A stretch of 64,000 nucleotides of DNA, from the NCBI GenBank assembly GCA_045863195.1, contig BTUI01000007.1, positions 50,327 to 114,326 on the forward strand, written 5' to 3'. The notes under the pieces were generated by a model that had not been told where the DNA came from, did no database searches, and saw nothing but the letters and a program-made list of their open reading frames with translations. Positions 5,327 through 26,706 of this stretch are shown here, one piece after another. Within the stretch, counting starts at the first letter, position 1; each line of letters starts with the position of its first letter. The translations under genes and the position numbers were made by a program. The DNA comes from Chloroflexota bacterium (GTDB lineage: Bacteria; Chloroflexota; Dehalococcoidia; UBA2979).

Positions 5327-5541
5327 CCGCGTCACGACGTCGCCCGCCAGCACACCCAGGCGCGAGAGTTCGCGCCTGCCTCTCAGACGCCGGGGCCGGC
5401 CGCACGGTTCCCGGGAATCCCCCGAGCATACGCCGCGCACCGTGACCTACTCCGCAACTGTGCGCGCGTGCACGAAGTTTACAAACGTAATCGACCTCGC
5501 GAGGATGGCACTGAACCGCTCGGAGTGCGCGGGGGTGAGAG

Positions 5542-7521
5542 ATGGAGCACGTCCAGCCAGTCAATGTGCGCAACGCCGGCCTGTTCGGCCACGCGAAGTC
5601 CGGAAAGACCACGCTGGCCGAGGCGCTCCTGCACGCCGCCGGCCTCACGAGCCGCATCGGCCGCGTGGAGGACCGCAACACGGTCTCCGACTACACCCCG
5701 GAGGAGCAGGAGCACGGCTACTCCATCAGCACCTCCCTCCTCGCCTTCGACTGGCGGGGACACCGCCTCAACCTTCTCGACACCCCCGGCTTTCCAGACT
5801 TCGAGGGCGAAGCCGTCTCCGCCGCCGCCGCGGTCGAGACCGGCGTCATCCTCGTCGACGCGGTCGCCGGCATTGAGGGCGGCGTGGAGGCGGCGTGGGA
5901 GCACCTGGACGCCGCCGGCGTGCCGGCGCGGTTCTTCGCGATTTCGCGCCTCGACCGCGAACACGCCGACTTCGACCGCGCCGTGTCCGCGATCCGCGCG
6001 CGCTTCGGCGAGCACGCCGTCGCCATCGCCCTGCCCGCCCACGGTGCGGACGGCCTCGGCGGCACCGTCGACCTCGTCGGCGTGGAACACGCGCACGACG
6101 ACGACCGCATCCACGATGCGCGCGACGCCCTCATCGAGGCGGTCGCCGAGTCGGACGATGCGCTGCTGGAGCGGTACCTGGACGGCCAGGAGATCGATGG
6201 CGAGTCGCTGCGCGCCGCCCTGGTCACCGCCGTGCGCGCCGGCGCGGTGATGCCCGTCCTCCCGCTCTGCGCCACGGCCGGCATCGGCGTGCGCGAGCTG
6301 GCCGATGCCCTCGTGGATCTCGCGCCGCCCCCGCCGGTCGCCACGGCGGAGGGTCCCGCGGTGGCGCGCGTGTTCAAGACGACCGCTGACCAGTACGTGG
6401 GGCACCTCTCGTTCGTGAAGCTCCTCGCCGGCCGCATCACGCACGGCGACCACCTCACGAACCCCTTGCGCCATGCGGAGGAGCGTGCGCCGCACCTGTT
6501 CGTCCTGCGCGGCAAGGAACAGATCGAGGTGCCTTCCCTCGGCGCCGGCGAGATCGGCGCGATCCCGCGCCTCTCGCACACCGGCACCGGCGATCTCCTC
6601 CTCGGCGCCGGCGCGGCGATGCCGGAGATCGCGCCGATCCGCTTCCCGGAGCCGACCTACCGCAGCGCCCTGACGCCACGCAGCCGTGACGACGTGGACC
6701 GCATGTCGCAGGGCCTCGCCCGGCTGCTGGAGCAGGACCGCACGCTGCGCGTGGAACGGGACACCGACACCGCCGAGACCGTGCTCGTGTCCCTCGGCGA
6801 TGTCCACGCCGGTATCGCCGTCGCCCGCCTCGCACGTGAGTCCGGCGTCACCGTCGATGTCACGGAGCCGCGCGTCCCGTATCGCGAGACGGTGACGGCC
6901 ACGGTGCAGGCGGAGCACCGCCACAAGAAGCAGACGGGGGGCCGCGGCCAGTACGGGCACGTGGTGATCCGCGTGGAGCCGCTGCCGCGCGGCGCCGGCT
7001 TCGAGTTCGCCGAAGAGGTCGTGGGCGGCGCGGTCCCGCGCCAGTTCATCCCCGCCGTGCACCACGGCATCGAGGAAGCCCTCGCCGCCGGCCCCCTCGC
7101 GAAGGCCCGCATCGTCGACCTGAGGGTGGTCCTCACGGACGGGTCGAGCCACCCGGTCGACTCCTCGGAGATGGCGTTCAAGACCGCGGCGGCCATGGCG
7201 CTCCACGAAGCCGTCCTCGCCGCGCACCCGGTGCTGCTGGAGCCGGTGGTGCGCCTGCGCGTGGAGGTGCCGTCCGAGCGCGTGGGCGACCTGACGGGCG
7301 AGATCTCCGGGCGACGCGGACACGTTCTGGGCGTCGATCCGGCCGGGTCGGACACCATCGTCAGCGCGCTCGCACCGCTCGCGGAGGTGCAGCGACTCGC
7401 CCCGCAGGTGCGCGCGATCGGCCACGGCCGCGGGCGGCTGTCGATGGCGTTCGACCACTACGCGGAGGTGCCCGGGAACGTGCAGCAGCAGATCGTCTCG
7501 ACGCTCGCGGCTGCCCACTAG
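5542..7521 (+). CDS. elongation factor G family GTPase (EF-G paralogue)
   Basis: 659 aa. G1 GHAKSGKTT and G3 DTPG are present. EF-G-like domains II-V (..VFKTTADQYVGHLSFVKLLAG.., ..HRHKKQTGGRGQYGHV.., ..GSSHPVDSSEMAFKTAA.., ..LLEPVVRLRVEVP..). G4 reads SRLD where EF-G has NKxD. Confidence 0.85.
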   Translation: MEHVQPVNVRNAGLFGHAKSGKTTLAEALLHAAGLTSRIGRVEDRNTVSDYTPEEQEHGYSISTSLLAFDWRGHRLNLLDTPGFPDFEGEAVSAAAAVETGVILVDAVAGIEGGVEAAWEHLDAAGVPARFFAISRLDREHADFDRAVSAIRARFGEHAVAIALPAHGADGLGGTVDLVGVEHAHDDDRIHDARDALIEAVAESDDALLERYLDGQEIDGESLRAALVTAVRAGAVMPVLPLCATAGIGVRELADALVDLAPPPPVATAEGPAVARVFKTTADQYVGHLSFVKLLAGRITHGDHLTNPLRHAEERAPHLFVLRGKEQIEVPSLGAGEIGAIPRLSHTGTGDLLLGAGAAMPEIAPIRFPEPTYRSALTPRSRDDVDRMSQGLARLLEQDRTLRVERDTDTAETVLVSLGDVHAGIAVARLARESGVTVDVTEPRVPYRETVTATVQAEHRHKKQTGGRGQYGHVVIRVEPLPRGAGFEFAEEVVGGAVPRQFIPAVHHGIEEALAAGPLAKARIVDLRVVLTDGSSHPVDSSEMAFKTAAAMALHEAVLAAHPVLLEPVVRLRVEVPSERVGDLTGEISGRRGHVLGVDPAGSDTIVSALAPLAEVQRLAPQVRAIGHGRGRLSMAFDHYAEVPGNVQQQIVSTLAAAH

Positions 7522-9224: not shown

Positions 9225-9547
9225 CCCCCGGCGCGGGTGCCGGACAGCGTGCCGCGGCCGAAGACGCCGAACCCGATTTCGCCCGTAATCGCGTCCCCGC
9301 GCACCTCTGCAGAGAAGGTCAGCGGCAGTTCGCCGCCGGGCGTCACCAGGGGTGCAGCCCACTGCAGGATCTCCGCGCCGTCGCGGGACTCCACCGTCCC
9401 ACCCTCGAACTCCTGGGAGGCCAGCGGGCCGACCCAGGTCCCCGCCAGGGCAGTGCCAGACGTCCTGAAAGTAAATGTGCCGTCGCGCGGCCCAATCGGT
9501 GTGCTCAACGTGACATTCCACGTACCATCGGCGAGCACTGGCGGCAC
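9221..9547 (-). CDS. hypothetical protein (108 aa, Gly/Thr-rich, probably beta-rich)
   Basis: GTG start with an AGGA-type SD. Protein-like composition (..[47 protein letters not shown]..). G/C-ending codons. Its stop overlaps the response-regulator stop (CTAG). No family recognised. Confidence 0.55.
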
Positions 9548-11531: not shown

Positions 11532-12490
11532 CGGACGCGCGGACGCCCCGCCCTCGGGTCCAGCGCGTCGCGCAGGCCGTCGCCCACATACTGCGTGCAG
11601 AGAAACAGCACCCCGAGGATCGCGGTGGGGATCGCCAGCGCCGTCCACTGCACCATCACGAACTGGAAGTGGTCGTTCACCAGCACGCCGAGGCTCGCGC
11701 CCGGCGGGGTCACGCCCAGCCCGATGAACGACAGCGCCGCCTCCGCGAAGATCGCCCGCGGCGCCATGAACGTCGCCTCCACGATCACAGGCCCTGCCGC
11801 GTGCGGCAGCCAGTGGCGGAGCGCGATCCTCGACCGCGACGCGCCGAGGGAGACCGCGGCGAGCGAAAACTCCGTCTCCCGGACCGCCAGCAGCTGGCCG
11901 CGCACGAGCCGCGCCATCGTCGGCCAGCCGGTGAGGCCGATCGCGAGGAACAGCAGCCACACACCGGCATCGAGGCCGAGCAGGTGCTGCTGGCCGAGCA
12001 GCGTCTCGCCCATCGCCGCGCGCAGGAGGATGATCAGCAGCAGGTCTGGCAGCGCGTAGGCCATGTCCGTGCCGCGCATCAGCAGCGCGTCCAGCCACCC
12101 GGGGCCGCTCGCGGCGAGCGCGCCGACGGCGATTCCGATCGTCCCTGCGACGAGGATCGCGAACGCCGCCGCCAGCAACGAGACCCGCAGTCCGGACAGC
12201 GTGCGGCTGTAGATGTCTCGCGCCAGCTGGTCGGTGCCGAAGAGGTGTTCCCCGCTCGGCGGCAGGAACTTCCCCGTCTCCCGGGGCGCCATCGGGTCCA
12301 GCACGCCGCCGGACGGCGCGGCGAGGTACTGGCGCGTCGGGTCGTGCGTCATCAGCAGCGGAGCGAACAGCGCGGCCAGCACGAGCAGGCCGAGGATCGC
12401 CGCGCTGCCGGCCGCCATCCGGTTCGACCGGAACCGCGCCCAGGCGCGCACGCCCGCGCCATCCTCCGCGCGCGGAACGTCGGCGATCAT
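11528..12490 (-). CDS. ABC transporter permease (peptide/nickel type, DppC/OppC-like)
   Basis: Start reset to ATG 12490, which overlaps the stop of the upstream permease (ATGA). The track's 476-aa version carries an Arg/Gly-rich false N-terminal extension. N-terminus ..FRSNRMAAGSAAILGLLVLAALFAPLL.. and the BPD-transporter core (..SLGASRSRIALRHWLPHAAGPVIV..). Confidence 0.85.
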   Translation of the reverse strand: MIADVPRAEDGAGVRAWARFRSNRMAAGSAAILGLLVLAALFAPLLMTHDPTRQYLAAPSGGVLDPMAPRETGKFLPPSGEHLFGTDQLARDIYSRTLSGLRVSLLAAAFAILVAGTIGIAVGALAASGPGWLDALLMRGTDMAYALPDLLLIILLRAAMGETLLGQQHLLGLDAGVWLLFLAIGLTGWPTMARLVRGQLLAVRETEFSLAAVSLGASRSRIALRHWLPHAAGPVIVEATFMAPRAIFAEAALSFIGLGVTPPGASLGVLVNDHFQFVMVQWTALAIPTAILGVLFLCTQYVGDGLRDALDPRAGRPRVR

Positions 12491-13434
12491 CGGAGCGTCA
12501 CCCGCGGGTCGATCAGCGGATACAGCAGGTCGACGACCAGGTTGGCGGCCATGATCACCGCGCCGTAGAACAGCGTGGTGCCCATGATCACCCCGTAGTC
12601 GCGCGCCACCACCGAGGTGATGAACGCGGACCCGATGCCGGGCACCCCGAAGATCGCCTCGATGATGATCGAACCGGTCACCAGGCTCGCGAACACCGGC
12701 CCCAGCACCGTCACCACGGGCACGAGCGCGTTCCGCAGCGCGTGGCGCAGGTACACGCCGCGCCAGCCGAGGCCCTTCGCGCGCGCCGTGCGGATGTAGT
12801 CCTGCTCCAGCACCTCCAGCATCGCCGCGCGCGTGATCCTCGACACGATCGCCATGCCGGGAGCACCGAGCGCGATCGCGGGGAGAATGCCGGCACGCAG
12901 CGACCCGATCCCCGTGCCGAAGCGCGTGCCGGCGAGCACGTCCGTCCAACCGAGCCACACTGAGAAGATCAGGAGCAACACGAACGCCAGCACGAACGCC
13001 GGCACCGCCGCCAGCGCCGTCGCGAGCGCGAGCGCAGCCGCGTCCACGACGCCACCTCGACGCACCGCCGCCAGCACCCCGAGTGGGATGCCGGCCGCGA
13101 CGACGATCGCGAACGACATCAGCCCGAGGATGAGTGACGGGCGCATCTTCGCGGCCATGAGGTTCGTGACGGGCTGACCCTGCTGCGCGAACGAGATGCC
13201 GAGGTCGCCCTGCACCAGGTGGCCGAGGTAGCGGACGAACTGAAGCGGCAACGGGTCATCCAGCCCGTAGTACGCGCGCTGCGCCTCGATCACCGCAGGA
13301 GGGAGCGGGCGATCGACGGAGGCGGCATCGAAGGGCCCGCCGGGGACGCGGTGCATCAGCAGGAAGGTCACAGCCGCCAGCACCAGCAGCGTCGCCGCTG
13401 TCCACGTCAGCCGCCGGGCGAGGTAGCGCGCCAT
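12487..13434 (-). CDS. ABC transporter permease (DppB/OppB-like)
   Basis: N-terminus MARYLARRLTWTAATLLVLAAVTFLLM. Permease core ..DYIRTARAKGLGWRGVYLRHALRNALVPVVT.. Confidence 0.9.
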   Translation of the reverse strand: MARYLARRLTWTAATLLVLAAVTFLLMHRVPGGPFDAASVDRPLPPAVIEAQRAYYGLDDPLPLQFVRYLGHLVQGDLGISFAQQGQPVTNLMAAKMRPSLILGLMSFAIVVAAGIPLGVLAAVRRGGVVDAAALALATALAAVPAFVLAFVLLLIFSVWLGWTDVLAGTRFGTGIGSLRAGILPAIALGAPGMAIVSRITRAAMLEVLEQDYIRTARAKGLGWRGVYLRHALRNALVPVVTVLGPVFASLVTGSIIIEAIFGVPGIGSAFITSVVARDYGVIMGTTLFYGAVIMAANLVVDLLYPLIDPRVTLR

Positions 13435-13493: not shown

Positions 13494-15266
13494 CTATTGC
13501 GCCCGCCCGGAGATGACCACCCGGTCGAAGAAGAGATCCCCGGGGATCTCGCCTTCCATCGAAGACGGCACCAGGCCCGTCACCCACGGCTTCACGAGCG
13601 CGTTGCGGCGGCCGTAGTAGAGCGGCGTGAACGGCGCGTCCGCAATCAGGATGCGCTGCGCGTCCAGGTACTGCTGGATCCGCCGGTCGTTGTCCAGTTC
13701 CTGCTCCGCCGCGTCCAGGAGCGCATCGAACTCCGGGTTGCTGTAGGCGCCGGAGTTGAACGCGCCACCCGCCTCGAAGAGCGGGAGCCAGTTCTGCGGG
13801 TCGGGGTAGTCCGCCCCCCAGCCGCTGATCACCACGGAGTAGTTCCCGGCGGTCCGGTCGGCCACGTAGGTCGCCGTGTCGCGCGTCACCACATTCACCG
13901 TGATGCCCAGGTTGCGCTGCCACTGTTCCTGCAGCCACTGGGTGGTCTGGTTCGCCGTCGTCGTGTCCACCGACAGGATCGTGACGGTCAGCCCGGCACC
14001 GCCGGGATAGCCCGCCTCCGCCAGCAGCCTCCGCGACGCCTCGAGGGCGTCACGGTAGGCGGCGCCGACCTCCGGGTCGTGGCCAGGCATCCCCGGCGGC
14101 ACCCAGCCGTACGCCGGCAGCACCGCGCCCTCGCGCACGATCTCGGCGTACTCCTGGCGGTCGAAGCCGCCCGCGAGCGCCTGTCGCACGTGCACGTCCG
14201 CCAGCATCGGGTCGTTGAGGTTGAAGAACAGCCCCACGGTGCTCAACTGCGCATATGCGATGAACTGCTCGCGCAGCGGGATGTCGTCGCGCACCTGCAC
14301 CAGTTCGGCCGCGCCGAGGGTCACGATGTCCAGTTCGGAGTTCTTGTAGGCGAGGAAGGTCACCGCGTTCTCGCTCACCATCGAGAACTGCACGGACTGC
14401 AGCGTGACCGGGGCGCCGTGCCAGTGCTCGTTCCGCACGAGTTCGACGCGCTCGCCGTGATCCCACGCGGCGAGGCGGAACGGGCCGTTCGAGACGTGGC
14501 TGCCCGCCTCCGTCCAGAGCGCACCGTTCGCGTCGATCAGGTCCTGCCGCACGGGGTAGAGCGGCCACATCGTGGCGAGCTGCAGGAAGACCGGCGTGCG
14601 TGTGGAGAGTTCGAACACGACCGTGCGGTCGTCCGGCGCCGTCACCCGCAGCGCCGGCCCCACGAGGGCCTCCAGCGCCAGCAGTTCCTCGCCGGTCACG
14701 CCCGCACGGCGCGCTGCCCGAACCGCCTGGTTTGCGTCGCCGTCCGGCCCGGGTGCCGCGATCACGCGGTAGAAGTCCGCGTAGTAGGAGGCCGCCCCCG
14801 GCTCGAAGATGCGCTTCGCCGCATCGACGAATGCCTGTGCCGCCAGCGGCGAGCCGTCTGACCACTTCAGCCCCTCGCGGAGCCGGAAGGTGTAGGTCAG
14901 GCCGTCCTCGGAGATGCCACCGTTGGCGACGGTCGGAACCTCCTGTGCCAGGTCGGGCAGCACCTGCAGGTCCGGGCCCACGCGGAGCAGGCCAGAGTAG
15001 ATGTTCTGAAGGATGGTGTTGGAGACGGAGTCCGTTGCGCGCTGCGGGTCGAGCGTGGGCGGCTCGCCCGGCAGGTTCACCCGCAGTGTCTGGTTCGCGT
15101 CCGGCACCGCTGCCGTGGCAGTGGCAGTGGCGGTCGCGTCAAGGCTCGCGGTGGCGGTCGGTGTCGGATCGTCGTCACCGCCCGGACTGCAGGCAGCGAG
15201 GATCAGCGACAGGAAGAACGGCGCGAGCACCAGCCGGCGCATCACACCGCGGATCGGCAGACTCAT
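13494..15266 (-). CDS. ABC transporter substrate-binding lipoprotein, family 5 (peptide/nickel)
   Basis: Lipobox LILAAC followed by a Thr/Ala/Asp linker. SBP_bac_5-like body (..IYSGLLRV.., ..LKWSDGSPL.., ..WGADYPDPQNWL..). Confidence 0.88.
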   Translation of the reverse strand: MSLPIRGVMRRLVLAPFFLSLILAACSPGGDDDPTPTATASLDATATATATAAVPDANQTLRVNLPGEPPTLDPQRATDSVSNTILQNIYSGLLRVGPDLQVLPDLAQEVPTVANGGISEDGLTYTFRLREGLKWSDGSPLAAQAFVDAAKRIFEPGAASYYADFYRVIAAPGPDGDANQAVRAARRAGVTGEELLALEALVGPALRVTAPDDRTVVFELSTRTPVFLQLATMWPLYPVRQDLIDANGALWTEAGSHVSNGPFRLAAWDHGERVELVRNEHWHGAPVTLQSVQFSMVSENAVTFLAYKNSELDIVTLGAAELVQVRDDIPLREQFIAYAQLSTVGLFFNLNDPMLADVHVRQALAGGFDRQEYAEIVREGAVLPAYGWVPPGMPGHDPEVGAAYRDALEASRRLLAEAGYPGGAGLTVTILSVDTTTANQTTQWLQEQWQRNLGITVNVVTRDTATYVADRTAGNYSVVISGWGADYPDPQNWLPLFEAGGAFNSGAYSNPEFDALLDAAEQELDNDRRIQQYLDAQRILIADAPFTPLYYGRRNALVKPWVTGLVPSSMEGEIPGDLFFDRVVISGRAQ

Positions 15267-16629: not shown

Positions 16630-18165
16630 ATGACCGACACCTTCACGATCGCCCTCGAGCCGCTGCCCGGCCGCCCCGTCATCGCCCCCATCGGGACGGG
16701 CGCGCGGGTGCTGCTGGTCTCCACGTACGAACTCGGGCACCAGCCGCTCGGCCTCGCCTGGCCCGCCGCCGCGCTCCGCGCCGCCGGGCACGACGTCCGC
16801 ACGCTGGATGTCGCCGTGGAGCCTCTGGAGGCGGGCGCGTTCCGTGGCGTCGACCTCGTCGCTATCTCGATCCCGATGCACACGGCCGCCCGCCTGGGCA
16901 TGGAGGTCGCCCGCGCGGCACGGAAGATCAACCCGGCCGCCCGCATCGCGTTCTACGGGCTGTACGCCTCGCCGCTGTACGCGCACCTCACCGCCGAGGG
17001 CCTCGGCGACGTCGTCATCGGCGGCGAGTACGAGGACGGCCTGGTGGCGCTGGCTGGCCGGATCGCCGCGGGCGACACGTCCGTCGACGTGGCCGGCGCG
17101 GGCGCCACGCCTTCGCTCGCGCGCCGCCGGCATCCCGTGCCGGACCGCCGCGGGCTGCCCGCGCTCGACCGCTACGCCAGCGTCCGCCGCCGCGACGGGG
17201 AGCATCCCGCCGGCTACGTGGAGGCGACCCGTGGCTGCGCTCACCGCTGCACCCACTGCCCGATCACGCCCGTGTACGGCGGTGCGCTGCGCCTCGTCCC
17301 GGCCGAGACGGTGCTCGCCGACGCGGCCCAGCAGATCGAGGCCGGCGCGCGGCACATCACCTTCGGCGACCCGGACTTCCTCAACGCCGTCCCGCACTCG
17401 ATGGCGATCGTGGAGGAGTTCCACCGCCGCTGGCCGGAGATCACGTACGACGTCACGGTGAAGGTGGAGCACTTCCTGGAGCACCCGGAGGTGTTCCCGC
17501 GGCTGCGCGAGACCGGCTGCCTCTGGGTCACCTCCGCGTTCGAGTCCTGCAACGACCGCACGCTCGGCCTGCTCGAGAAGGGGCACACGCGCGCGGACAT
17601 GGAGGCGGCGCTCCGCATCGCGGACGGCGCGGGGCTTCCGGTGCGTCCCACCTGGGTGGCCTTCACCCCGTGGACCACGCTCGATGACCTTGTGGACATG
17701 GTCGAGTTCGTCGCGGAGCACGGCCTCCAGCGTCACGTCCAGCCGGTGCAGTACACGCTGCGTCTGCTGCTGCCGCCGGGCTCGCCGCTGAACGGCGTGC
17801 TGGAAGCGCAGGGGCTCCTCGGGCCGTTCGATGCGGAGCACCTCACCTACACCTGGGCAAACCCCGACCCCCGCGTGGATACGCTCCAGGCGGAACTCGC
17901 GGCGCTCGTGGAAGCCGCCGCGATCCCCGCGACCGGCGAGGAGTGCGACGAGGACGGTGTCTGCGCCGTCCCCGGCTCGATCGAGGACATCGTCGAGACG
18001 TTCGAGAAGGTGCGGACGGCCGTGTATGCCGCCGCCGAGCGCACGCGCCCGCCTCGGGGACTCGTCCCGCTGCGCTTCGTCCCGTCGCTCACGGAGGCCT
18101 GGTACTGCTGTGCGGAGCCGACCGAGCAGCAACTGCGGCTGACCGAGGTCGCGACCGGCATCTAG
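16630..18165 (+). CDS. B12-binding-domain radical SAM protein with C-terminal CCAEP tail
   Basis: N-terminal cobalamin-binding-like domain (VLLVSTYELGHQPLGLAWPAAALRAAGHDV..). Radical-SAM cluster motif CAHRCTHC (CxxxCxxC). C-terminal ..EAWYCCAEPTEQQL, encoded TGC TGT (Cys-Cys, no TGA). Confidence 0.85.
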   Translation: MTDTFTIALEPLPGRPVIAPIGTGARVLLVSTYELGHQPLGLAWPAAALRAAGHDVRTLDVAVEPLEAGAFRGVDLVAISIPMHTAARLGMEVARAARKINPAARIAFYGLYASPLYAHLTAEGLGDVVIGGEYEDGLVALAGRIAAGDTSVDVAGAGATPSLARRRHPVPDRRGLPALDRYASVRRRDGEHPAGYVEATRGCAHRCTHCPITPVYGGALRLVPAETVLADAAQQIEAGARHITFGDPDFLNAVPHSMAIVEEFHRRWPEITYDVTVKVEHFLEHPEVFPRLRETGCLWVTSAFESCNDRTLGLLEKGHTRADMEAALRIADGAGLPVRPTWVAFTPWTTLDDLVDMVEFVAEHGLQRHVQPVQYTLRLLLPPGSPLNGVLEAQGLLGPFDAEHLTYTWANPDPRVDTLQAELAALVEAAAIPATGEECDEDGVCAVPGSIEDIVETFEKVRTAVYAAAERTRPPRGLVPLRFVPSLTEAWYCCAEPTEQQLRLTEVATGI

Positions 18166-19393: not shown

Positions 19394-20461
19394 CTACGCC
19401 GTGTGGTCCGCCGCGCTCGGCCGGAGCGACGCCCGGCGGCGCTGCACGTCCACCGCCGCCTTCACGGCCGCGGCCGCGAGGCGCGCCTCCGCGAAGGCGG
19501 AGGGGGTCCGGCCAAGCACCAGCGCGTCCGGGGGAGCATCGCCCCGCGCGCGGACCAGCGCCTGGATCTCCTGAACCGCCGCCACCAGCCGCCGGCTCGC
19601 CTCCAGCCCCACGGGACGCGCCTGCCGGTTGTAGCGGTCGAGCGCCTCCACGGCTGAGACCGCCGGGCTCACCTCCCGGAGGATCTCGATGCCTTCCTCA
19701 GCAAGCCGCTCGTGGAACATCGTCAGGTCGCGCCGGTAGCGAAGCGTCCACGCCTCCGCCTCCCCCAGCGCCGCGTCGAAGTCGCGCGGCGCGAGGAAGA
19801 ACCGCACGAGGTCCAGGCGTGGCCGCAGCACCTCGCGCGCCTCGACGAGCGAGCGGTGGGCGCCGGCATCCGGGGCGACCGCCGCGTCCAGGCAGCGCGT
19901 CACGATCTCGAGCGCACGACCGGCGCCGGCGTCACGCAGCCGCTCGGCCAGCACGTCGTGTGCGAAGGCGGCAGCGTCCGGCCAGTGGATCCGGAGGCGG
20001 CGGTCGAACCCGTCGCGCCCCTCCTCCGCAATGTCCCCGAGGAGCCCCGGGCGGTCGCGCAGGAACCCGACGAGCGATTCGCGGGAGTGTGGGCCGGCCT
20101 CGCAGGGTGGATGGGGCGGACACAGCGCCTGGAACCCGGCGGCGATGAACGCCTCCGGCGGATCGCCGGGCGTCCGGAAGTACGGGGAATGCGGCCAGGC
20201 ATGGGCGACCGCGGACGAGACCGCTGCGGCATCCATGGAGGTGTCGGCGATGGCGACCCACGCCGGGAGATGGGCGGGAGGCGCCTCGCCCGGCCGCACG
20301 AGGAGCAGGCGGACATCTGCGAGGATGACGTCCGGAGGGGCGGTCAGCCCCTCGCGCCACTCGGCGGAGGCGTGGATCTCGGCGGCGTAGTACGTGCCGA
20401 AGGGGTCGCGGAAGTACGCGACCCGGGGCGAGGTCGGGGGCCAGGAGAGTACCGGGGGCAC
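19394..20461 (-). CDS. hypothetical protein (~355 aa), no recognisable domain
   Basis: Start reset to GTG 20461 (GGAG 5 nt upstream), because the track version overlaps the preceding HDOD gene. Protein-like sequence (..AYFRDPFGTYYAAEIHASAEWREG.., ..FLRDRPGLLGDIAEEGRDGFDRRLRIHWPD.., ..AWTLRYRRDLTMFHERLAEEGIEILREV..). Confidence 0.6.
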   Translation of the reverse strand: MPPVLSWPPTSPRVAYFRDPFGTYYAAEIHASAEWREGLTAPPDVILADVRLLLVRPGEAPPAHLPAWVAIADTSMDAAAVSSAVAHAWPHSPYFRTPGDPPEAFIAAGFQALCPPHPPCEAGPHSRESLVGFLRDRPGLLGDIAEEGRDGFDRRLRIHWPDAAAFAHDVLAERLRDAGAGRALEIVTRCLDAAVAPDAGAHRSLVEAREVLRPRLDLVRFFLAPRDFDAALGEAEAWTLRYRRDLTMFHERLAEEGIEILREVSPAVSAVEALDRYNRQARPVGLEASRRLVAAVQEIQALVRARGDAPPDALVLGRTPSAFAEARLAAAAVKAAVDVQRRRASLRPSAADHTA

Positions 20462-20504
20462 TCGCGCTCCGATCCGACCGGTCGATACCGGCGAAGCCCC
20501 TGCG

Positions 20505-21365
20505 TCAGGAGCCCGCCGTGTGGATGAACACCGCCGCCCGCTGCGACAGGCCGTCCAGCCCACCACCCTGCTCGAGCAGCAAGGCCAGGGGCGAGACGGT
20601 CCATTCAACAGCGGGGGCGGCGAGGGCGGGCTCTTCCAGGCCATCCGTCAGGCCGTGGGCATGTGCGAAGTCGCGCGCCCGGATCACCAGCCCGGCCAGG
20701 CTGTCGCGACTCTCCAGCGCGTCCAGCGGCTGCTGGTGGGTGGCGACGGCCTGCGCCAGGCTCGACGGAAAGTTCCAGCGCCGGGCCAGCGCGCCGCCGA
20801 CCTCTGCGTCCGTGAAGCCGAGGAGGGCACGTTCCGCTTCCGGCAGCGTGATGCCCTCCTGCCGCGCCAGCACCACGCAGCGGCGGAGGTCATCCGGCCG
20901 CGCCTGATCCAGCGCCAGCCGGCCCACGTTGTGGAGGACACCGGCCGTGAACGCCTCGTCGGCGTGGCAGCGGCCGCTCTTCGCCAGCGTCTCCGCGAGC
21001 AGCCCCACGGTCAGCGAGAAGCGCCAGAACGCATCGTGCTGGATGACGCGCCCTCGCGGCATCGTCTCAAGGACGCACGCGGCGAGGGTCGCCGAGCGGA
21101 TGGCGCGGAAGCCCAGCAGCACCACGGCGTCGCGCACGGTGCTGATCCGGCGCGGGAACCCGTAGTACGCGGAGTTCGCGAGGTGGAGGACGGTGGCCGT
21201 GAGTGCGGGGTCGGAGGAGATCGCCTGGGCCAGCTCATGGGCGGAAAAGTGCTCGCTCTCAACGATCGCGAGCACCCGTGCGGCAACCGGCGGGAGTGGC
21301 CGTAGATCGGCGATCTCCCCGACCAGCACATCGAGCGGTGCGTCAATGACGCCTCGCTCCGACAT
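20505..21365 (-). CDS. HDOD domain-containing signalling protein
   Basis: HDOD signature (LPPVAARVLAIVESEHFSAHELAQAISSDPALTATVLHLANSAYYGFPRRISTVRDAVVLLG.., AGVLHNVGRLAL, LGFTDAEVGGALARRWNFP). Start set at ATG 21365; there is no obvious SD, and the TTG at 21458 is an alternative. Confidence 0.8.
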   Translation of the reverse strand: MSERGVIDAPLDVLVGEIADLRPLPPVAARVLAIVESEHFSAHELAQAISSDPALTATVLHLANSAYYGFPRRISTVRDAVVLLGFRAIRSATLAACVLETMPRGRVIQHDAFWRFSLTVGLLAETLAKSGRCHADEAFTAGVLHNVGRLALDQARPDDLRRCVVLARQEGITLPEAERALLGFTDAEVGGALARRWNFPSSLAQAVATHQQPLDALESRDSLAGLVIRARDFAHAHGLTDGLEEPALAAPAVEWTVSPLALLLEQGGGLDGLSQRAAVFIHTAGS

Positions 21366-21472
21366 GGGAGGAAATGACCAGGAAGCCGTACGGGAGGGGT
21401 CCGACGGCTCCCCGGTCGAACACGATCGACGTAAGGCGACGTCGAATCGTTGCTGCAAGTGAGGCTCCTGGG

Positions 21473-21574
21473 CTACCAGGGGAAGATGACTTCAGCGAGG
21501 GCCGACGTGCCGGTCGCGATGAACGCGGCGGCGACGAAGGCGGAGGCGACGGTGGTGGTGATGAAGCGGCGCAT
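21473..21574 (-). CDS. 33-aa signal-peptide-like pro-peptide (MRRFITTTVASAFVAAAFIATGTSALAEVIFPW)
   Basis: ATG 21574, TAG 21473. GGGAG SD 6 nt upstream. 31 of 33 codons end in G/C. Own promoter-like region and an upstream terminator. The track lists only an upstream-extended 66-aa form. Confidence 0.55.
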   Translation of the reverse strand: MRRFITTTVASAFVAAAFIATGTSALAEVIFPW

Positions 21575-21637
21575 GGCGTACTCCCGAGATCGTGTGCCGC
21601 GATGGGAATCGGCGGCCGGTCTGCACTTGACATGCGG

Positions 21638-21672
21638 ACAGTACGGAGCAGCCTCTGACCAACCTCTGACCA
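21638..21672 (-). promoter_or_regulatory. candidate activator-dependent promoter: 2 x TGGTCAGAGG direct repeats at 11-bp period, 8 nt upstream of TACTGT
   Basis: Minus strand reads TGGTCAGAGG-T-TGGTCAGAGG-CTGCTCCG-TACTGT. On the plus strand the repeats are cctctgacca at 21652-21661 and 21663-21672. It lies ~65-100 nt upstream of the mini-ORF ATG. Confidence 0.45.
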
Positions 21673-21677
21673 CGGGC

Positions 21678-21713
21678 TAAAGAAAGCCGTCAGAAGCCCG
21701 ACTTTTCTGACGG
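21678..21713 (-). terminator. rho-independent-type terminator after the STAND/SARP regulator gene
   Basis: 9-bp stem (plus strand ccgtcagaa 21687-21695 / ttctgacgg 21705-21713) with a 9-nt loop. On the minus strand it is followed by CTTTCTTT. It sits 50 nt after the regulator stop. Confidence 0.55.
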
Positions 21714-21762
21714 TTCTGTAGATTTAGCAAGATTTCGAGGGCGAGGGCCCGCAGGCGCGGGG

Positions 21763-24700
21763 TCAGTCGACCGGATCGTCCAGCGCTTCACCGGACAGCA
21801 CCCGGTTGTAGAGCGACCGGACGCGCGCCGAGGGCGTCCCGCCCACCTCGTCCCGCATGGCGTCGTGGAGACGCCGGTACGCCCGCGCGGCCAGGTCCAG
21901 GTTGCCCCGGTGGACGTGCCCCTGCATCACCCGGATGGCGGCGTCCTCGTTCAGGGGGTCCACGGCCAGGACGGACTCCGCCATCCGGATCGCCTCCGCC
22001 GCGTCGCCCCGCCGGAGGGCGGCGGAGGCGAGGGCCACCGTGTTGGAGAGGTACATGTCCTCGTATCTCTGACGGGCGGCCTCCACCCAGTCAGACTCGA
22101 ACCCGGAGGCGAACGACCCCGCGTACAGCTGGATGACCTTCGACACGCCGGAGGCCCACTCCTCGCTCCCGCGTGGGGCCGCCTCTGCCTGCTGCAGCCC
22201 CTTCTCGAACTCGGCGGCGTCGTACCAGATGTCGAAGTCCGGGTTCACCTGGTAGCCACCGCCCGACTGCACCACCACCTGCGGGTGGATCGCCTTTCGC
22301 AGCCGGTACAGCGTGGTGTGGAACTGGCTGTTCAGTTGCTTGGGGCTGACGTCCGGCCAGAGCTCGACGGCGATCTCCTCCTTGCGCAGCGGCCGTCCGC
22401 GGTGCAGGAGGTAGAAGAACAGTTCCTTGCTCCGCTCCGACCGCCACTCCATGTCCGCGATCAGCCGCCCGTCCACGCTCACCCGAGGCGCACCGAACGC
22501 CTCCGCCCGGATCCGGAATGCCGCCGGCAGTTCCGCATCGTGCTCGCCGGCCTCGGACGGGCGGACGCGGCTCGCCAGCGTGCGGAAATAGTCGCCGCCC
22601 ACGCGGCGCGCCGCGGCGTACTCGACGACTTCCAGGTTCTGGCGCGCCTCCGCGAGCAGGAACTGGTCGTAGCCCAGCGCCTCCGTCAGCGCGTACACGC
22701 GCTCTAGATGCTCCATCGCCGGCTGCCGGTGACGGGTGTGGAACAGCGACGAGCCGAGGAGGAGCAGGGCGAGCGCCTGTTCCCGACGCGCGCCGCCGTC
22801 CTCCGCCGCGGCCGCGGCCGCCTCCAGCACCGGGATGGCGTCCTGGTGGGCCTGCTCCGAGCACATCGTCGCGGCCGCGCCGATCCGGAAGCGCGTCTGC
22901 ATCAGCATCGCGCCGGTCTGCTCCGCAGACCGGAGGCCGTGGTCGAGCAGCGCCCGGGCGCGCGAGAACTCGCCGCGCTCCCGGTAGCACATCGCCAGTC
23001 CGTAGGTCGCCGCGAGGATGAGCGCGGGGTCGTCGATCTCCTGCGCCTCGTGGATCGCCACGGTGTAGAGGGTGATCGCGTTGTCGAGCCGCCCGAGGTC
23101 GCGCTCGACGTTGGCGAGGCCCTCCTTGCCGTACGCCTCGTACCGGTGGTGGCCGATGCGGCTGGCGCGCTCCACGACGCCCTCGAACGTGTCGCGGGCG
23201 GTCTCCAGTTCGCCCAGCATGTGCTGGACGTTGCCCATGTTGTTCATGGTGGCGATCTGCGCCTGCGGCTCCGCGAGCATGCGCCAGCGGCGCTGCGCGG
23301 AGGTGTACTCCGCCATTGCCACGGCCAGGTCCCCGGCCAGGTACAGGACGTTGCCCAGCATGTCCCGCGCCTCCGCGGTGCTGTGCTGGTTGCGCTGCTC
23401 CTCGAACCGGAGCGCCGCCTGCTCGATGCGCTCTCGCGCGGCCGGCAACTGCCCGTACCGGGCGAGGGCGACCCCCTCCTCGAAGTCGATCTCCGCGTAG
23501 ACGGGGTGGTCGTCGTCCAGGTGCTCCAGCGCCGCCTGGCGGGCGCGGCGGCAGCCCTCGACGGCCTCGGGGATGCGCCCCATCTCGCGGAACGCGACGC
23601 CGCGATACAGCAGCGTCCGGACGCGCTGCTCCGGCTCCAGCGGGTGCGTCTCGATCCGGTCCAGGCGCGTCAGACACTCCTGCCGGTGGCCGAACTTCGC
23701 CGCGAGGCGTGCGCGCACCAGTCCGAGGTCGATCTCCTGGTCGATGACCTCCTCCGGCAGCCGGTCGATCCACCCAGCCAGCGTGCGCCATTCGCCGCGC
23801 TGGTACAGGGTGTCGCGCGTGTCGTACAGCTCGCGCACGACCTCCGACCAGTCGCCGGCCTCGATCGACAGGTTCACCGCCTCCACCAGCATCCCGCGGC
23901 GGCTGCAGATCGCCGCCGCCTGACGCCGGAGGTCGGTCGCCCGCTGCCGCTGCTCCCGCTCCAGCCGGGCAAGGAGGTGCTCCCGGATCAGCGCGTGCAT
24001 CCGGTACCACTCGCCGTCACCGGCGTCGTCGCCGAGGCGCGTGAGGAAGCGGTTCGTCTGCGCCAGTTCGTGGAGCGCGGGCCCCGCCTGCTCGTTCCGC
24101 GTCAGCGACTGCGCGAACTCCAGGTCGAACGTGGGCAGGACGGAGCAGGCGGTCAGCACCTCCATCTGAAGCGGCGTCAGCCGTTCCAGCACCTCCTGGT
24201 CAATGAACTGGCCGAGGATGAACTCGAACTCGCCGTGCATCCCTCGGTCGGGGTCGTAATGGTCGACCATCACGGCCAGCGCCGCGGCCCAGCCGTCCGC
24301 CCGGCGGATCAACTCGGCCCGGTGGTCGGGCCCCACCTTCGACTGGTCGAGGAACCGCGCCGCCTCCTCCGCCGTGAAGATGAGGTCGCGCGCCCCCAGC
24401 GAGTAGGCGCGCCGCTGCGCCGTGAGCCGCGCGAGCGACCCGAGCGATGGCCACGTCCGCGACAGGATCATCAGCCGCATGTTCATCGGCACCGAGCGCA
24501 CGAGCGTGTCGACGACGGCGAGCGCCTCCGGCGAGTCGTCCAGGAAGTGCAGGTCGTCCAGGACAAGGACGAAGAGGTCGTCCACTTCCTGCTGGATGGC
24601 GGCCGACAGTTCGGAGACCAGTGCCCCGGCGCCAGCCGGCACGCCGCCGGCCTCCAACCGCTCCATGAATTCGGCAAGCGCCTCCGGGAACGCCTGCCGC

Positions 24701-25002
24701 ACGGCACCGGCCAGGTCCGCCACCAGCGCGAGCGGGTCCGCGTCCTGCGCATCGAGGGAAAGCCACGCCACCTTCAGCGCGGCGGCACTGGCCCAGTCCA
24801 CGGCCAGCGTGGACTTGCCGTAGCCAGCGGGCGCCGTCAGGAGCGTGACGTCGTACTCGAGCGCCTCATCGAGGAGCGCGTGGAGGCGGTCGCGTCGGAC
24901 GGTGTCCGCGCGGCGGCGCGGCGGCACCAGTTTGGGCAGGAACTGCCGTCGTGGTCGCCGCGGTGGGGGCAGGTCAGGGCGGCTGACCGCAGGCCACGTC
25001 AC
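21763..25002 (-). CDS. large STAND-type transcriptional regulator: P-loop NTPase + TPR/SUPR sensor + C-terminal SARP module (OmpR-type wHTH + BTAD)
   Basis: MalT-like N-terminus (..LPKLVPPRRRADTVRRDRLHALLDEA..LLTAPAGYGKSTLAV.. Walker A; LFVLVLDDLHFL Walker B). A long TPR-like region follows. C-terminus: ..RVSVDGRLIADMEWRSERSKELFFYLLHRGRPLRKEEIAVELWP..TTLYRLRKAI (wHTH), then ..YDAAEFEKGL..LYAGSFASGFESDWVEAARQRYEDMYL..AIRMAESVLAVDPLNEDAAIRVMQGHVHRGNLDLAARAYRRLHDAMRDEVGGTPS (BTAD). Start set at GTG 25002. The track's 1291-aa form runs antisense through the neighbouring gene. Confidence 0.85.
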   Translation of the reverse strand: MTWPAVSRPDLPPPRRPRRQFLPKLVPPRRRADTVRRDRLHALLDEALEYDVTLLTAPAGYGKSTLAVDWASAAALKVAWLSLDAQDADPLALVADLAGAVRQAFPEALAEFMERLEAGGVPAGAGALVSELSAAIQQEVDDLFVLVLDDLHFLDDSPEALAVVDTLVRSVPMNMRLMILSRTWPSLGSLARLTAQRRAYSLGARDLIFTAEEAARFLDQSKVGPDHRAELIRRADGWAAALAVMVDHYDPDRGMHGEFEFILGQFIDQEVLERLTPLQMEVLTACSVLPTFDLEFAQSLTRNEQAGPALHELAQTNRFLTRLGDDAGDGEWYRMHALIREHLLARLEREQRQRATDLRRQAAAICSRRGMLVEAVNLSIEAGDWSEVVRELYDTRDTLYQRGEWRTLAGWIDRLPEEVIDQEIDLGLVRARLAAKFGHRQECLTRLDRIETHPLEPEQRVRTLLYRGVAFREMGRIPEAVEGCRRARQAALEHLDDDHPVYAEIDFEEGVALARYGQLPAARERIEQAALRFEEQRNQHSTAEARDMLGNVLYLAGDLAVAMAEYTSAQRRWRMLAEPQAQIATMNNMGNVQHMLGELETARDTFEGVVERASRIGHHRYEAYGKEGLANVERDLGRLDNAITLYTVAIHEAQEIDDPALILAATYGLAMCYRERGEFSRARALLDHGLRSAEQTGAMLMQTRFRIGAAATMCSEQAHQDAIPVLEAAAAAAEDGGARREQALALLLLGSSLFHTRHRQPAMEHLERVYALTEALGYDQFLLAEARQNLEVVEYAAARRVGGDYFRTLASRVRPSEAGEHDAELPAAFRIRAEAFGAPRVSVDGRLIADMEWRSERSKELFFYLLHRGRPLRKEEIAVELWPDVSPKQLNSQFHTTLYRLRKAIHPQVVVQSGGGYQVNPDFDIWYDAAEFEKGLQQAEAAPRGSEEWASGVSKVIQLYAGSFASGFESDWVEAARQRYEDMYLSNTVALASAALRRGDAAEAIRMAESVLAVDPLNEDAAIRVMQGHVHRGNLDLAARAYRRLHDAMRDEVGGTPSARVRSLYNRVLSGEALDDPVD

Positions 25003-25096
25003 CCGGTGATGATAGACCTGCGCGAGGCGGCTGCGGTGGCACGCTCCCCTCGATACGCTGGAAGTCAGACTCCCGCCGAACCAGAAGGACGCACGC

Positions 25097-25735
25097 ATGG
25101 CCTTCGCCGTGGACGACGAACTCGCCTTTCTCCGCACGTACGAGTCGACCACGCTCACCAAGCCACAGGTCGTCGCGGACAACGTCCTCACCGGCATCTT
25201 CCTCGCGGACTCCCGGCACCGGGCAGCCCTCGCCGCGCTGCTCCTGCAGGAGGCGGTCGAGGCGGCGCGACGGCTGGCGGCGGTGTGGGACGCACTGGCG
25301 CACCGGTCGCGCTCGGTCGCGGAGGCGCTGGCCGGGCCGCTCCCCAACGCCACGGTGTGGGAGGCGCTCGCCGGCGCCGTCACCGGCCTCGAGGACCCGC
25401 GCGAGGTGCTGCGCCTGATCCAGGTGGACGAGAGCGCGCTGGAGAGCGCGGAGGAGATGCTGGAGTTCGCCGGGCTGGACTGGTTCAGCGCCGCGATCCG
25501 CACGTTCGAGGCGGGCCCGCCGGCCCTCACGCTGGAGCCGGGCGAGCCCGGAAGCCCCGGCGTGGTCGCGTTGCGGGGGGTGGGCACGGATGGCTCGCCG
25601 CGCGAGACGCGGGTGCGGCTGGAGGACGACCGCATCATCGCCCTGGGCGACGCGACCGGTGACTTCGTGACGTGGTCGCGGGACTTCCTCGGCGCCTACA
25701 TGGACGCTCGCGAGGCGGCGGCGCAGAGGCGATAG
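25097..25735 (+). CDS. hypothetical acidic protein (212 aa)
   Basis: AGAAGGA SD 7 nt upstream of the ATG. Protein-like, Glu/Leu/Ala-rich, without Arg bias (MAFAVDDELAFLRTYESTTLTKPQVVADNVLTGIFLADS...). Divergent from the regulator. No family recognised. Confidence 0.65.
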   Translation: MAFAVDDELAFLRTYESTTLTKPQVVADNVLTGIFLADSRHRAALAALLLQEAVEAARRLAAVWDALAHRSRSVAEALAGPLPNATVWEALAGAVTGLEDPREVLRLIQVDESALESAEEMLEFAGLDWFSAAIRTFEAGPPALTLEPGEPGSPGVVALRGVGTDGSPRETRVRLEDDRIIALGDATGDFVTWSRDFLGAYMDAREAAAQRR

Positions 25736-25835
25736 GCAGGCGCCTACCGGCGCAGAGGCGATAGGCAGGCGCCTACCGGCGCAGGGGCGATAGGCAGGCG
25801 CCTACCAGCGCAGGGCCGCTGTCGGCGCCTAGCGG
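25721..25835. repeat. 29-bp tandem repeat: 2 identical copies, 1 copy with 2 mismatches, 1 degenerate copy
   Basis: Unit gcgcagaggcgataggcaggcgcctaccg at 25721-25749 and 25750-25778 (identical) and 25779-25807 (2 mismatches); degenerate copy at 25808-25835. Each unit contains TAGGC-AGGC-GCCTA (5-bp stem). The first copy includes the stop of the 25097-25735 gene. The last overlaps the stop of the convergent methyltransferase gene. Confidence 0.9.
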
Positions 25836-26539
25836 CTGAGGGCCGCCATCAGGATGCCGGCCGCCACGCCGACGTTCAGCGAGGTCACGGCCGAGCCGCG
25901 CGGGGTGATGCGGCAGACCTCGTCGCAGGTCTCCAGCGTCAGGCGTCGCAGGCCGGACTCCTCGTTCCCCAGCACCAGTAGCCACGGCCGGTCGGTCTGG
26001 ACGGCGGTGACGTCTTTCTTCGCGTGCTCGGACGAGCCGATCACCCAGATGCCGGCATCCTTCGCCGCCTGCAGCGCGCGACGCAGGTTCGTCTCCACCG
26101 CGAACGGCACCGCCTCCATGCCCCCGCTCGCCACGTCGTACACGACGGCGGTGAGGCCGACCGAGCGGTCCGCCGTCAGTACCACGCCGCGCACGCCGAA
26201 GAACGCCGCGGCTCGGAAGATCGCGCCGGCGTTGTGCGGGTCCTGCACGCCGTCCAGCGCCAGCCAGAGCCCCCGGTCATGATCGCCGGCGAACAGCCGG
26301 TCGAGGGGCACCGGCTCGCGCTCTCGGACGATCGCCTCTGCGCCACTCCGCCCGCCCTCGCGCCCCGACCGCTGGTCGCGTTCCACCGGCACCACGGGCC
26401 GGTCGTGCCGGTTCGCCTCCGCCACCACGCGGTCCCACGCGCCCTGCGCACGGCCACCCGGCAGCCGCACCTCCGCGACGTCGCGAGGACGGGCGTCGAG
26501 GACGGCGAGGACGGCGTGCGGGTTGCGGAGCGCGAGCAT
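25829..26539 (-). CDS. TrmH/SpoU-family RNA 2'-O-methyltransferase (RlmB-like)
   Basis: SpoU motifs (..LALDGVQDPHNAGAIFRAAAFFG.., ..LLVLGNEESGLRR.., ..ITPRGSAVTSLNVGVAAGILM..). Start ambiguous: ATG 26539 chosen, 26593 possible. Confidence 0.85.
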   Translation of the reverse strand: MLALRNPHAVLAVLDARPRDVAEVRLPGGRAQGAWDRVVAEANRHDRPVVPVERDQRSGREGGRSGAEAIVREREPVPLDRLFAGDHDRGLWLALDGVQDPHNAGAIFRAAAFFGVRGVVLTADRSVGLTAVVYDVASGGMEAVPFAVETNLRRALQAAKDAGIWVIGSSEHAKKDVTAVQTDRPWLLVLGNEESGLRRLTLETCDEVCRITPRGSAVTSLNVGVAAGILMAALSR

Positions 26540-26608: not shown

Positions 26609-26706
26609 CTTGCGTCAGTAGTCCGGGCCACGTGCGTGTCACGCCTGCACCCTGCGGTGCGGGCCCGCCCGGTGCGGCACCTCTGCCGCCTCTGACCTGA
26701 CGCAAG
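26609..26706 (+). other. candidate structured 5' leader of the ABC-F gene
   Basis: 10-bp long-range helix cttgcgtcag (26609-26618) / ctgacgcaag (26697-26706) encloses GC-rich local hairpins, e.g. gcacc-ctgc-ggtgc at 26646-26659. A further agcagc (26705-26710) / gctgct (26745-26750) pairing lies downstream. Confidence 0.3.

Follow-up and report, generated by a model that had tools for sequence, protein, structure and literature searches.

Two identical 10-bp direct repeats lie on the minus strand of a 64,000-nucleotide stretch of Chloroflexota DNA (contig BTUI01000007.1; the whole stretch is called the window here), between the gene for a large regulator and a mini-ORF (open reading frame) of 33 codons. 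The starts of the two repeats are 11 bp apart, and judging from sequence comparison we consider it likely that they are the operator of the upstream regulator and make an activator-dependent promoter for the mini-ORF. The initial annotation of this DNA had proposed a SARP-style activator site in front of the mini-ORF, a reading that the comparison with orthologous loci supports.

Geometry of the repeat pair

Read on the minus strand, the site consists of TGGTCAGAGG, a T at position 21662, a second TGGTCAGAGG, the spacer CTGCTCCG and TACTGT. The two 10-mers described in the initial annotation are indeed identical and start exactly 11 bp apart (21672-21652), and the proximal one is separated by 8 nt from a TAnnnT hexamer, TACTGT at 21643-21638. 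The lack of a good -35 is likewise borne out: the hexamers 16-18 nt upstream of TACTGT (AGGTTG, GAGGTT and AGAGGT) match TTGACA at only zero to one of six positions, leaving no usable -35, and a consensus promoter scan returned 0 sites. Transcription is predicted to start near 21631, about 7 nt past TACTGT, which would put the repeat pair at -41 to -21. In SARP operators the direct repeats are 11 or 22 bp apart and the 3' repeat lies 8 bp from the -10 (PMC10936776). The 11-bp period, the 8 bp to the -10 and the missing -35-like hexamer are all found in the window, so that the claimed match to the geometry of characterised SARP promoters agrees with the published rule (PMC10936776, PMC11301090).

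Could such a pair have arisen by chance? Perfect 10-mers at period 11 occur on average 0.38 times per simulated 64-kb sequence, with at least one in 21% of the sequences (first-order Markov model), and a second perfect pair with 11-bp period, GGCGGCGTGG-A-GGCGGCGTGG, is present at 5878-5898 on the plus strand within the coding ORF 5539-7521. This second pair serves as a negative control, as it indicates that such repeats can arise by chance, and we therefore rejected the in-window statistics as proof of significance. When up to three mismatches are allowed, the 21-mer occurs once in the window (0.02 expected) and no further site is found there, and the single 10-mer with up to two mismatches is not enriched (42 found vs. 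56 expected). The single near-match, at 26689, has a 9-bp, out-of-phase partner. The sequence GTCAGAA in the 5' arm of the hairpin behind the regulator gene (21705-21711, minus strand) is similar to the repeat core GTCAGAG (21664-21670, minus strand), a likeness that is probably coincidental; we rejected it as a third repeat, since it is 41 bp off, out of phase and not conserved beyond the closest relatives. The window by itself being weak evidence, the decision depends on what other genomes show.

Conservation of the site at orthologous loci

We compared 17 loci, namely the window, L001-L012, L025, L030, L080 and L081, in which the regulator is 43-97% identical and the downstream DNA is readable. 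The window has about 72% G+C, and the relatives of the upstream protein all come from metagenome-assembled genomes (MAGs) of Chloroflexota/Dehalococcoidia, not from Streptomyces. The layout of 10-mer, one base, 10-mer, 8-nt spacer, -10-like hexamer, leader, GGGAG and mini-ORF is kept in 17 of 17 loci, with the consensus TGGTnAGAGG-y-TGGTnAGAGG and a constant period of 11 bp. In this alignment the -10 hexamer has an information content of 1.23 bits per column (see Table 1 for the other elements). When the DNA from the regulator stop to the mini-ORF ATG is aligned by MAFFT without anchors, the only gap-free conserved blocks are the repeat pair, TA...T and the ribosome-binding site. The leader between the hexamer and the ATG is unconserved and measures 52-63 nt; since its length changes between loci without keeping to multiples of 3, the conservation of the repeats is not due to coding.

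These results refute the explanation of the pair as a functionless tandem duplication, which we consider next to impossible. The expected frequency in the window, the second copy at 5878 and the 11-bp arrays of the same 10-mer in unrelated genomes (see below) would be in keeping with it. The repeats, whose loss at orthologous loci the initial annotation had named as speaking against its reading, are conserved at all 17 loci, down to 43% protein identity, and recur next to a homologue of only 26% identity (L097), with the flanks scrambled.

A conserved block of this kind might also work at the RNA level, in the 5' untranslated region or in a read-through transcript, rather than as a DNA operator, and the transcript of the regulator gene could indeed run through the region. 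We regard this as very improbable. The repeats are direct and not complementary, and are thus unable to pair; an Rfam search of 20000-26000 gave no match; the predicted 5' untranslated region folds no better than shuffled sequences (z = 0.47); and what is conserved is the helical phasing on the DNA together with a constant distance to the -10-like hexamer.

In nine of the orthologous loci (L002-L007, L010, L012 and L025; e.g. L004 5451-5470 and L025 5860-5877) a CRP/FNR-like palindrome, TGTGA-N6-TCACA, ends 3 nt before the distal repeat (for example TTGTGACTGCGGTCACAATC) and would centre near -52.5. It could bind a second regulator or serve the regulator gene as a weak terminator. The equivalent segment of the window, 21673-21690, is without this palindrome, and the window's clade has a longer GC hairpin and GTGATC there. 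One contig, QZJT01000025.1 (L006/L040), is labelled ‘Phycisphaerales bacterium’ and carries the full Chloroflexota-type synteny of SpoU, regulator, mini-ORF and HDOD genes; it is probably mis-binned.

Linkage of the site to the regulator gene

According to scans of 185,579 species genomes with the 21-mer and with a relaxed 30-nt pattern, the site occurs once per regulator-bearing MAG, each time beside the regulator, and neither scan found a second site in any of these MAGs. The scans thus brought no regulon to light. Outside Chloroflexota the patterns matched coding sequence or tandem arrays of an unrelated kind. Metagenomes were also scanned with the alignment of the regulator, but the patterns were those of the generic P-loop and most of the genes returned were unrelated and MalT-like; L080, L081, L082 and L097 were the useful loci.

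Four distant homologues are followed directly downstream by a repeat promoter and a small ORF. The low-GC locus L097 (26% identity) has TGGTAAGAGG-T-TGGTAAAAAC at period 11, followed by N8, TATTAT and a 39-aa signal-peptide-like ORF, while L077 (25% identity) has three (C/T)GCGAACAA units at period 11, 8 nt, TATTCT and a small ORF. Two copies of TTTTGAAGCCTG in L074 (26% identity) and the (A/G)TTCGTTGA units in L186 (27% identity) are spaced at period 12, and in both loci 8 nt, TAnnnT and a small ORF follow. The recognition helices of L077 and L074, the two that were compared among L077, L074 and L186, differ from that of the window's family. The same rule of repeats, 8 nt, -10 and small ORF therefore recurs with altered repeat sequences, as expected if the regulator reads the repeats. 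The distant homologues L073, L082, L187, L188 and L189 are without the module of repeats, -10 and small ORF.

A genuine operator at this promoter might instead be bound by another winged-helix protein, for example a response regulator of the OmpR/PhoB family, a possibility to which we assign a low probability. Proteins of this family, too, recognise direct repeats that are phased at 11 bp and extend over the -35; in addition, the side-by-side binding of SARPs resembles that of GlnR and PhoP (PMC11301090), and PhoP competes with AfsR at afsS (PMC10972967). As the repeat geometry fits response regulators too, the assignment to the adjacent regulator rests on the strict linkage of gene and site. 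Over 26-97% identity and in varied genomic contexts, the site is invariably found right behind the regulator gene; the repeat sequence shifts in lineages with a changed recognition helix, and none of the conserved neighbouring genes encodes a response regulator.

The small ORFs of L186 (5478-5681), L077 (6651-7108) and L074 (4782-4925) each encode a hydrophobic segment and a short tail. That of L186 ends in GGGGGGCGGSC and that of L077 in NGADPWP, the latter being followed by an ORF of the Frankia_peptide family beside a polyketide synthase region; the small ORF of L074 is followed by genes for DUF5317 and a PAS-GAF-HD protein. Some of these ORFs may encode precursors resembling those of ribosomally synthesized and post-translationally modified peptides (RiPPs).

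Unrelated genomes contain tandems of 2-5 copies of 11-bp units resembling (T)GGTCAGAGG, frequently at the 3' ends of genes in convergent orientation: in L014-L020 and L023 (Streptomyces, Quadrisphaera, Acidimicrobiia, Pseudonocardia) and in L055, L059, L061, L064 and L069 (Candidatus Angelobacter). In one Angelobacter MAG the sequence aaaaag-TGGTTAGARGGTGGTTAGAGG-ataccagg is present in five near-identical copies, which resemble a dispersed repeat element. None of these arrays and copies is linked to the regulator. Within Chloroflexota, full or half sites with the right TAnnnT spacing and no regulator within 8 kb are found at L029 (4911-4945, minus strand), L169 (3557-3586, minus strand), L166/L171 and L184; the L029 site, TGGTGAGAGGCTGGTCAGAGG-N8-TACCAT, precedes the gene of a secreted protein. 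These sites could be regulon members or chance matches.

The upstream regulator

The regulator is a MalT/LAL-type STAND ATPase in which a SARP domain replaces the LuxR helix-turn-helix (HTH). Pfam detects AAA_16, TPR_12 (4.9e-20), TPR_MalT (4.1e-15) and, at the C-terminus, BTAD (2e-19), and the NCBIfam models for MalT and AfsR match residues 24-451 (E = 8e-64, below the equivalog cut-off) and 861-1072, respectively. WHD_MalT (PF25873) is present in all regulator homologues. The C-terminal LuxR-type HTH domain GerE is absent from the regulator, which has BTAD in its place, and is found only in more distant homologues. The start of the protein is uncertain, since orthologues align from residue 13-22 and the frame is open up to 25638; the open stretch upstream is occupied by a divergent GC3-rich gene.

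The initial annotation had stated that the gene at 21763-25002 ends in a winged HTH (wHTH) and BTAD module, and sequence and structure comparison agree on this point. The last 262 residues align end to end with the SARP domain of AfsR (8hvr, E = 4e-10) and with EmbR. Their AlphaFold (AF2) model (pLDDT 95.1, pTM 0.88) has its best Foldseek matches in the Protein Data Bank with AfsR in RNA polymerase initiation complexes (8k60 and 8hvr, TM 0.75-0.78), and also matches EmbR. The regulator thus contains an OmpR-type wHTH directly followed by BTAD, the arrangement that characterises SARP proteins. The base-contacting residues T88 and R92 of AfsR (PMC10936776) align to the T and R of the helix FHTTLYRLRK, in which most positions are invariant or nearly so across the family. 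In every pairwise comparison the wHTH is the most conserved domain: between the window and L001 it is 98% identical against 78-87%, and between the window and L030 59% against 40-43% for the rest of the protein. This parallels the near-invariance of the repeats, which we take as support for the pairing of regulator and site.

Several observations weigh against the repeats being a SARP operator of this regulator. Such a repeat is statistically unremarkable when only the window is considered, and with a single site per genome the motif is without the support of a regulon. The geometry fits OmpR/PhoB-type response regulators as well. SARP operators are described as heptamers or 8-mers with a looser spacer, whereas here 10 of 11 positions per unit are conserved, compared with the 7-8 usual in SARP boxes; the variable positions are position 5 and the linker base. 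In L030 the TAnnnT hexamer is replaced by GACGAT, the period in L074 and L186 is 12 bp and not 11 bp, and Pfam Trans_reg_C is subthreshold when taken alone (E = 0.029).

The mini-ORF and the surrounding elements

The features of the region are collected in Table 1.

Table 1. Elements of the regulator and mini-ORF region, in window coordinates
Feature	Positions	Strand	Remarks
Regulator gene, ~1079 aa	21763..25002	-	MalT-type P-loop NTPase/winged helix ~24-451, TPR ~457-800, C-terminal SARP
SARP domain (OmpR-type winged helix + BTAD), last 262 aa	21766..22551	-	recognition helix ...NSQFHTTLYRLRKA...
Hairpin CCGTCAGAA-N9-TTCTGACGG, then CTTTCTTT	21687..21713	-	-14.1 kcal/mol, z = -3.2; probable terminator of the regulator gene
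Distal direct repeat TGGTCAGAGG	21663..21672	-	predicted -41 to -32; mean 1.59 bits per column, ~0.5 in flanks
Proximal direct repeat TGGTCAGAGG	21652..21661	-	predicted -30 to -21; mean 1.85 bits per column
8-nt spacer CTGCTCCG	21644..21651	-	length fixed in 17/17 loci; sequence variable, 0.63 bits per column
-10-like hexamer TACTGT	21638..21643	-	TAnnnT at the equivalent position in 16/17 loci
Ribosome-binding site GGGAG	21581..21585	-	6 nt before ATG; GGGAG/GGGGAG conserved
Mini-ORF, 33 aa, MRRFITTTVASAFVAAAFIATGTSALA|EVIFPW* (full: MRRFITTTVASAFVAAAFIATGTSALAEVIFPW)	21473..21574	-	33 aa in orthologues of at least 55% identity
Predicted Sec signal peptide	21574-21494	-	
Predicted mature hexapeptide EVIFPW	21493-21476	-	
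Two consecutive strong hairpins	21376..21454	-	-49.5 kcal/mol, z = -5.2; between mini-ORF stop and HDOD start
HDOD-domain gene	20505..21365	-	downstream neighbour in most orthologous loci

The stop codon of the regulator gene and the start of the mini-ORF are 188 nt apart, and the two genes remain direct neighbours at each of the 17 loci and in L097, in changing contexts; the pair persists where the neighbours differ (L010/L011, L030 and L097). In the window and in every orthologue of at least 43% identity the mini-ORF encodes M-R-R, a stretch of some 20 residues that are hydrophobic or small, and A-x-A immediately ahead of a tail of six residues; in L030 it is 38 aa long. The tails are clade-specific and fall into the classes EVIFPW, EVIYPW, EVIWPW; EMILPW; GVIWPW; EVIWDL; EVIWGM; and ECEWTC (L030), which can be written as E[VM]I[FYWL][PDG][WLM], GVIWPW and ECEWTC. 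The product appears in public collections only as ‘hypothetical protein’, and phmmer returned 0 matches for the 33-aa peptide among 1.84 billion representatives, the query being too short and of low complexity. In L011 the mini-ORF begins with ATC (~9356-9358) and not with the ATG found in the near-identical L010; the copy could be decaying, the sequence could contain an error, or a non-canonical start codon could be in use.

The hairpin that the initial annotation had placed between the regulator gene and the site is confirmed by its folding energy; it is a probable terminator, which a terminator scan flags in a shorter form. Its sequence is kept only in the closest relatives, and other clades have a different inverted repeat there. 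The tandem hairpins behind the mini-ORF are a probable terminator or attenuator before the HDOD gene; their loop ACCCCTC and arm GGGGAG are conserved, with structural equivalents in L002 and L005. The HDOD gene is not the downstream neighbour in L010/L011, L030 and L097 and may lie outside the mini-ORF unit. Its ATG (MSERG...) is conserved without a Shine-Dalgarno sequence and is preceded by the anti-SD-like TTTCCTCCC (21363-21375, minus strand), which may point to a leaderless mRNA or to an unusual mode of translation.

Two further roles of the mini-ORF were considered and rejected. A leader-peptide attenuator made of the mini-ORF and the two hairpins is unlikely because the mini-ORF and its promoter persist where the HDOD gene is missing, and because the signal-peptide and A-x-A pattern is conserved. 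As to a RiPP precursor, the nearby gene for a B12 radical-SAM protein of the CCAEP-tail family is convergent, 3 kb off and missing in several loci, and the conserved core contains no modifying enzyme. The radical-SAM gene itself (16630-18165, plus strand) matches the NCBIfam equivalog ‘CUAEP/CCAEP-tail radical SAM (seleno)protein’ with 572.7 bits (cut-off 500), encodes WYCCAEP 14 residues from the C-terminus, is convergent with the mini-ORF operon and is syntenic in several loci. Two neighbours with conserved synteny have no Pfam or NCBIfam match: the divergent gene beside the regulator (25097-25735, plus strand, 212 aa) and the gene after HDOD (19394-20479, minus strand, ~361 aa), which is not in every locus.

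Proposed mechanism

By analogy with MalT and AfsR, the regulator would be switched on by a ligand or signal and would then oligomerise in a nucleotide-dependent manner. A pair of SARP domains, placed side by side, would cover the repeats (about -41 to -21), stand in for the absent -35 and bring RNA polymerase to the weak -10 TACTGT. Transcription would start near 21631, and the transcript, coding for the signal peptide and the hexapeptide, would end at the strong hairpins at 21454-21376.

Alternatively, the adjacent regulator might bind the repeats and act as a repressor that covers the promoter or stops read-through transcription coming from the regulator gene. The positions -40 to -20 are typical of repressors (PMC11301090), and read-through is possible because several clades have only a weak hairpin behind the regulator gene. 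There is, on the other hand, no -35 that unaided RNA polymerase could use, the BTAD activation domain is intact, and the fixed distance of 8 nt to the -10 is a hallmark of SARP activation (PMC10936776). We therefore think repression improbable.

A possible peptide-signalling cassette

Could the regulator and the mini-ORF form a self-contained autoinduction cassette for cell-cell signalling in Chloroflexota? We offer this as a tentative idea that is more doubtful than the activator-operator reading itself. The product of the mini-ORF would be exported and cut after A-x-A, freeing a hexapeptide (EVIFPW or its clade-specific variants), which would be re-imported and bind the MalT-type STAND regulator in its TPR/sensor region. 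Oligomerisation of the regulator would follow, and its SARP domains would activate the propeptide promoter through the two repeats.

The idea is modelled on the RRNPP quorum-sensing cassettes, for which a five-criterion signature has been described (PMC10075063). Four of the five features are present or plausibly present here, namely a small propeptide (33 aa, within the range of 10-100 aa), a Sec signal, a TPR receptor and adjacency; the receptor, at ~1079 aa, lies outside the range of 250-500 aa. As in PlcR-PapR, NprR-NprX and AimR-AimP, the gene of a cytoplasmic TPR-containing regulator lies directly beside a small gene coding for a Sec-type signal peptide (a predicted one in the window) and a C-terminal peptide, which in those systems has 5-7 residues, and as in PlcR-PapR autoinduction the regulator appears to drive the propeptide gene. 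Unlike the RRNPP receptors, the 1079-aa protein is a STAND ATPase with SARP output where they have an XRE-type HTH; it shares no homology with them and belongs to a phylum outside Bacillota, and peptide sensing is here a conjecture. The TPR region did not clearly diverge faster than the rest of the protein, as might be expected of a pherotype signal, except for L002 vs. L025.

An OppA/DppA-like family-5 solute-binding protein (13494-15266, minus strand) and an ABC permease (12487-13434, minus strand) are encoded 6-9 kb downstream of the mini-ORF, and a solute-binding-protein gene is also nearby in L002, L003 and L007; they are a hint that is relevant only if the hexapeptide is re-imported. The combination of regulator, direct-repeat promoter and small hydrophobic-plus-tail ORF in L097, L074, L077 and L186 suggests a wider family of such cassettes. 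The RRNPP papers retrieved in our literature searches do not mention Chloroflexi, and no description of such a system in Chloroflexota surfaced. If the idea is true, the cassette would be a functional analogue of PlcR-PapR and AimR-AimP built from unrelated parts, in a phylum without known peptide quorum sensing. The tiny target, a signal peptide with a six-residue tail, makes the idea of encoded peptide signals in uncultured Chloroflexota testable, and a synthetic hexapeptide would be easy to come by.

Comparison with known regulators and promoters

AfsR of Streptomyces coelicolor (8hvr, 8k60) is the top match for the C-terminal domain of the regulator in both sequence and structure, and its target afsS offers a close parallel. 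Both regulators are large proteins composed of a SARP domain, a STAND ATPase and TPRs, and AfsR, too, activates an adjacent small gene (PMC10972967), as the small gene lying immediately beside the window's regulator gene would lead one to expect here. At afsS the AfsR box occupies -40 to -19, overlapping a poor -35 ahead of a weak -10, CACTGT (PMC10936776, PMC11301090); in both promoters two 11-bp direct repeats overlap or replace the -35 and end 8 nt before the weak -10, which is TACTGT in the window. The two systems differ in several respects. The domain order is reversed, with the SARP domain at the C-terminus in the window, the ATPase is of the MalT/LAL type compared to the NB-ARC of AfsR, the phylum is Chloroflexota, and the repeat sequence is unrelated to that of AfsR (CGTT(T/C)ATCG). 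AfsS is cytoplasmic, whereas the small gene of the window encodes a predicted signal peptide and hexapeptide.

The SARP-LAL regulators PimR, SanG and PolR also join a SARP domain to a LAL/MalT-like ATPase half, and PimR likewise has a single target promoter. The PimR heptamer (C/T)GGCAAG with its 4-bp spacer (PMC5930380) resembles TGGT(A/C)AG with AGGy in the window, a likeness that we treat as a lead at the operator level only. In PimR, however, the SARP domain is N-terminal and the operator does not overlap the -35, and unlike in PimR-type operators the ‘spacer’ bases AGAGG of the window are as conserved as the heptamer. Similarity to MalT of E. coli and the LAL proteins is found in the N-terminal 450 aa, which fit the MalT model and contain the WHD_MalT and TPR_MalT domains; by analogy, ligand activation and ATP-driven oligomerisation would be the expected mode of the window's regulator. 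In contrast to these proteins, its C-terminal LuxR/GerE HTH is replaced by SARP, and its operator consists of direct repeats at the -35 position and not of MalT boxes. In the pho-box promoters of PhoB/OmpR, direct repeats with an 11-bp period also replace the -35 and are bound by a winged-helix tandem dimer, but the window's regulator contains BTAD and is without a receiver domain or partner kinase.

Described SARPs carry the SARP domain at the N-terminus and extra domains at the C-terminus (PMC10972967, PMC10936776) and have been reported ‘exclusively’ from actinobacteria (PMC10972967). The regulator departs from both descriptions, its close relatives all being Chloroflexota/Dehalococcoidia MAGs. 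Of the SARP-style interpretation in the initial annotation, the module and the geometry stand; the SARP domain turns out to be C-terminal on a MalT-type STAND ATPase, and the host is a member of Chloroflexota and not an actinomycete. Our analysis supports, at the level of sequence, a SARP-type promoter outside actinobacteria that is paired with an inverted MalT-SARP regulator. The conservation of the SARP promoter grammar in Chloroflexota would mean that the mechanism reaches beyond one phylum, and the conserved, predicted-secreted mini-peptide, as the sole detectable target of the regulator, adds interest. Since the promoter rule holds with different repeats across homologues of ~25% identity, it could serve as a simple predictor of direct targets for a large uncharacterised family of regulators.

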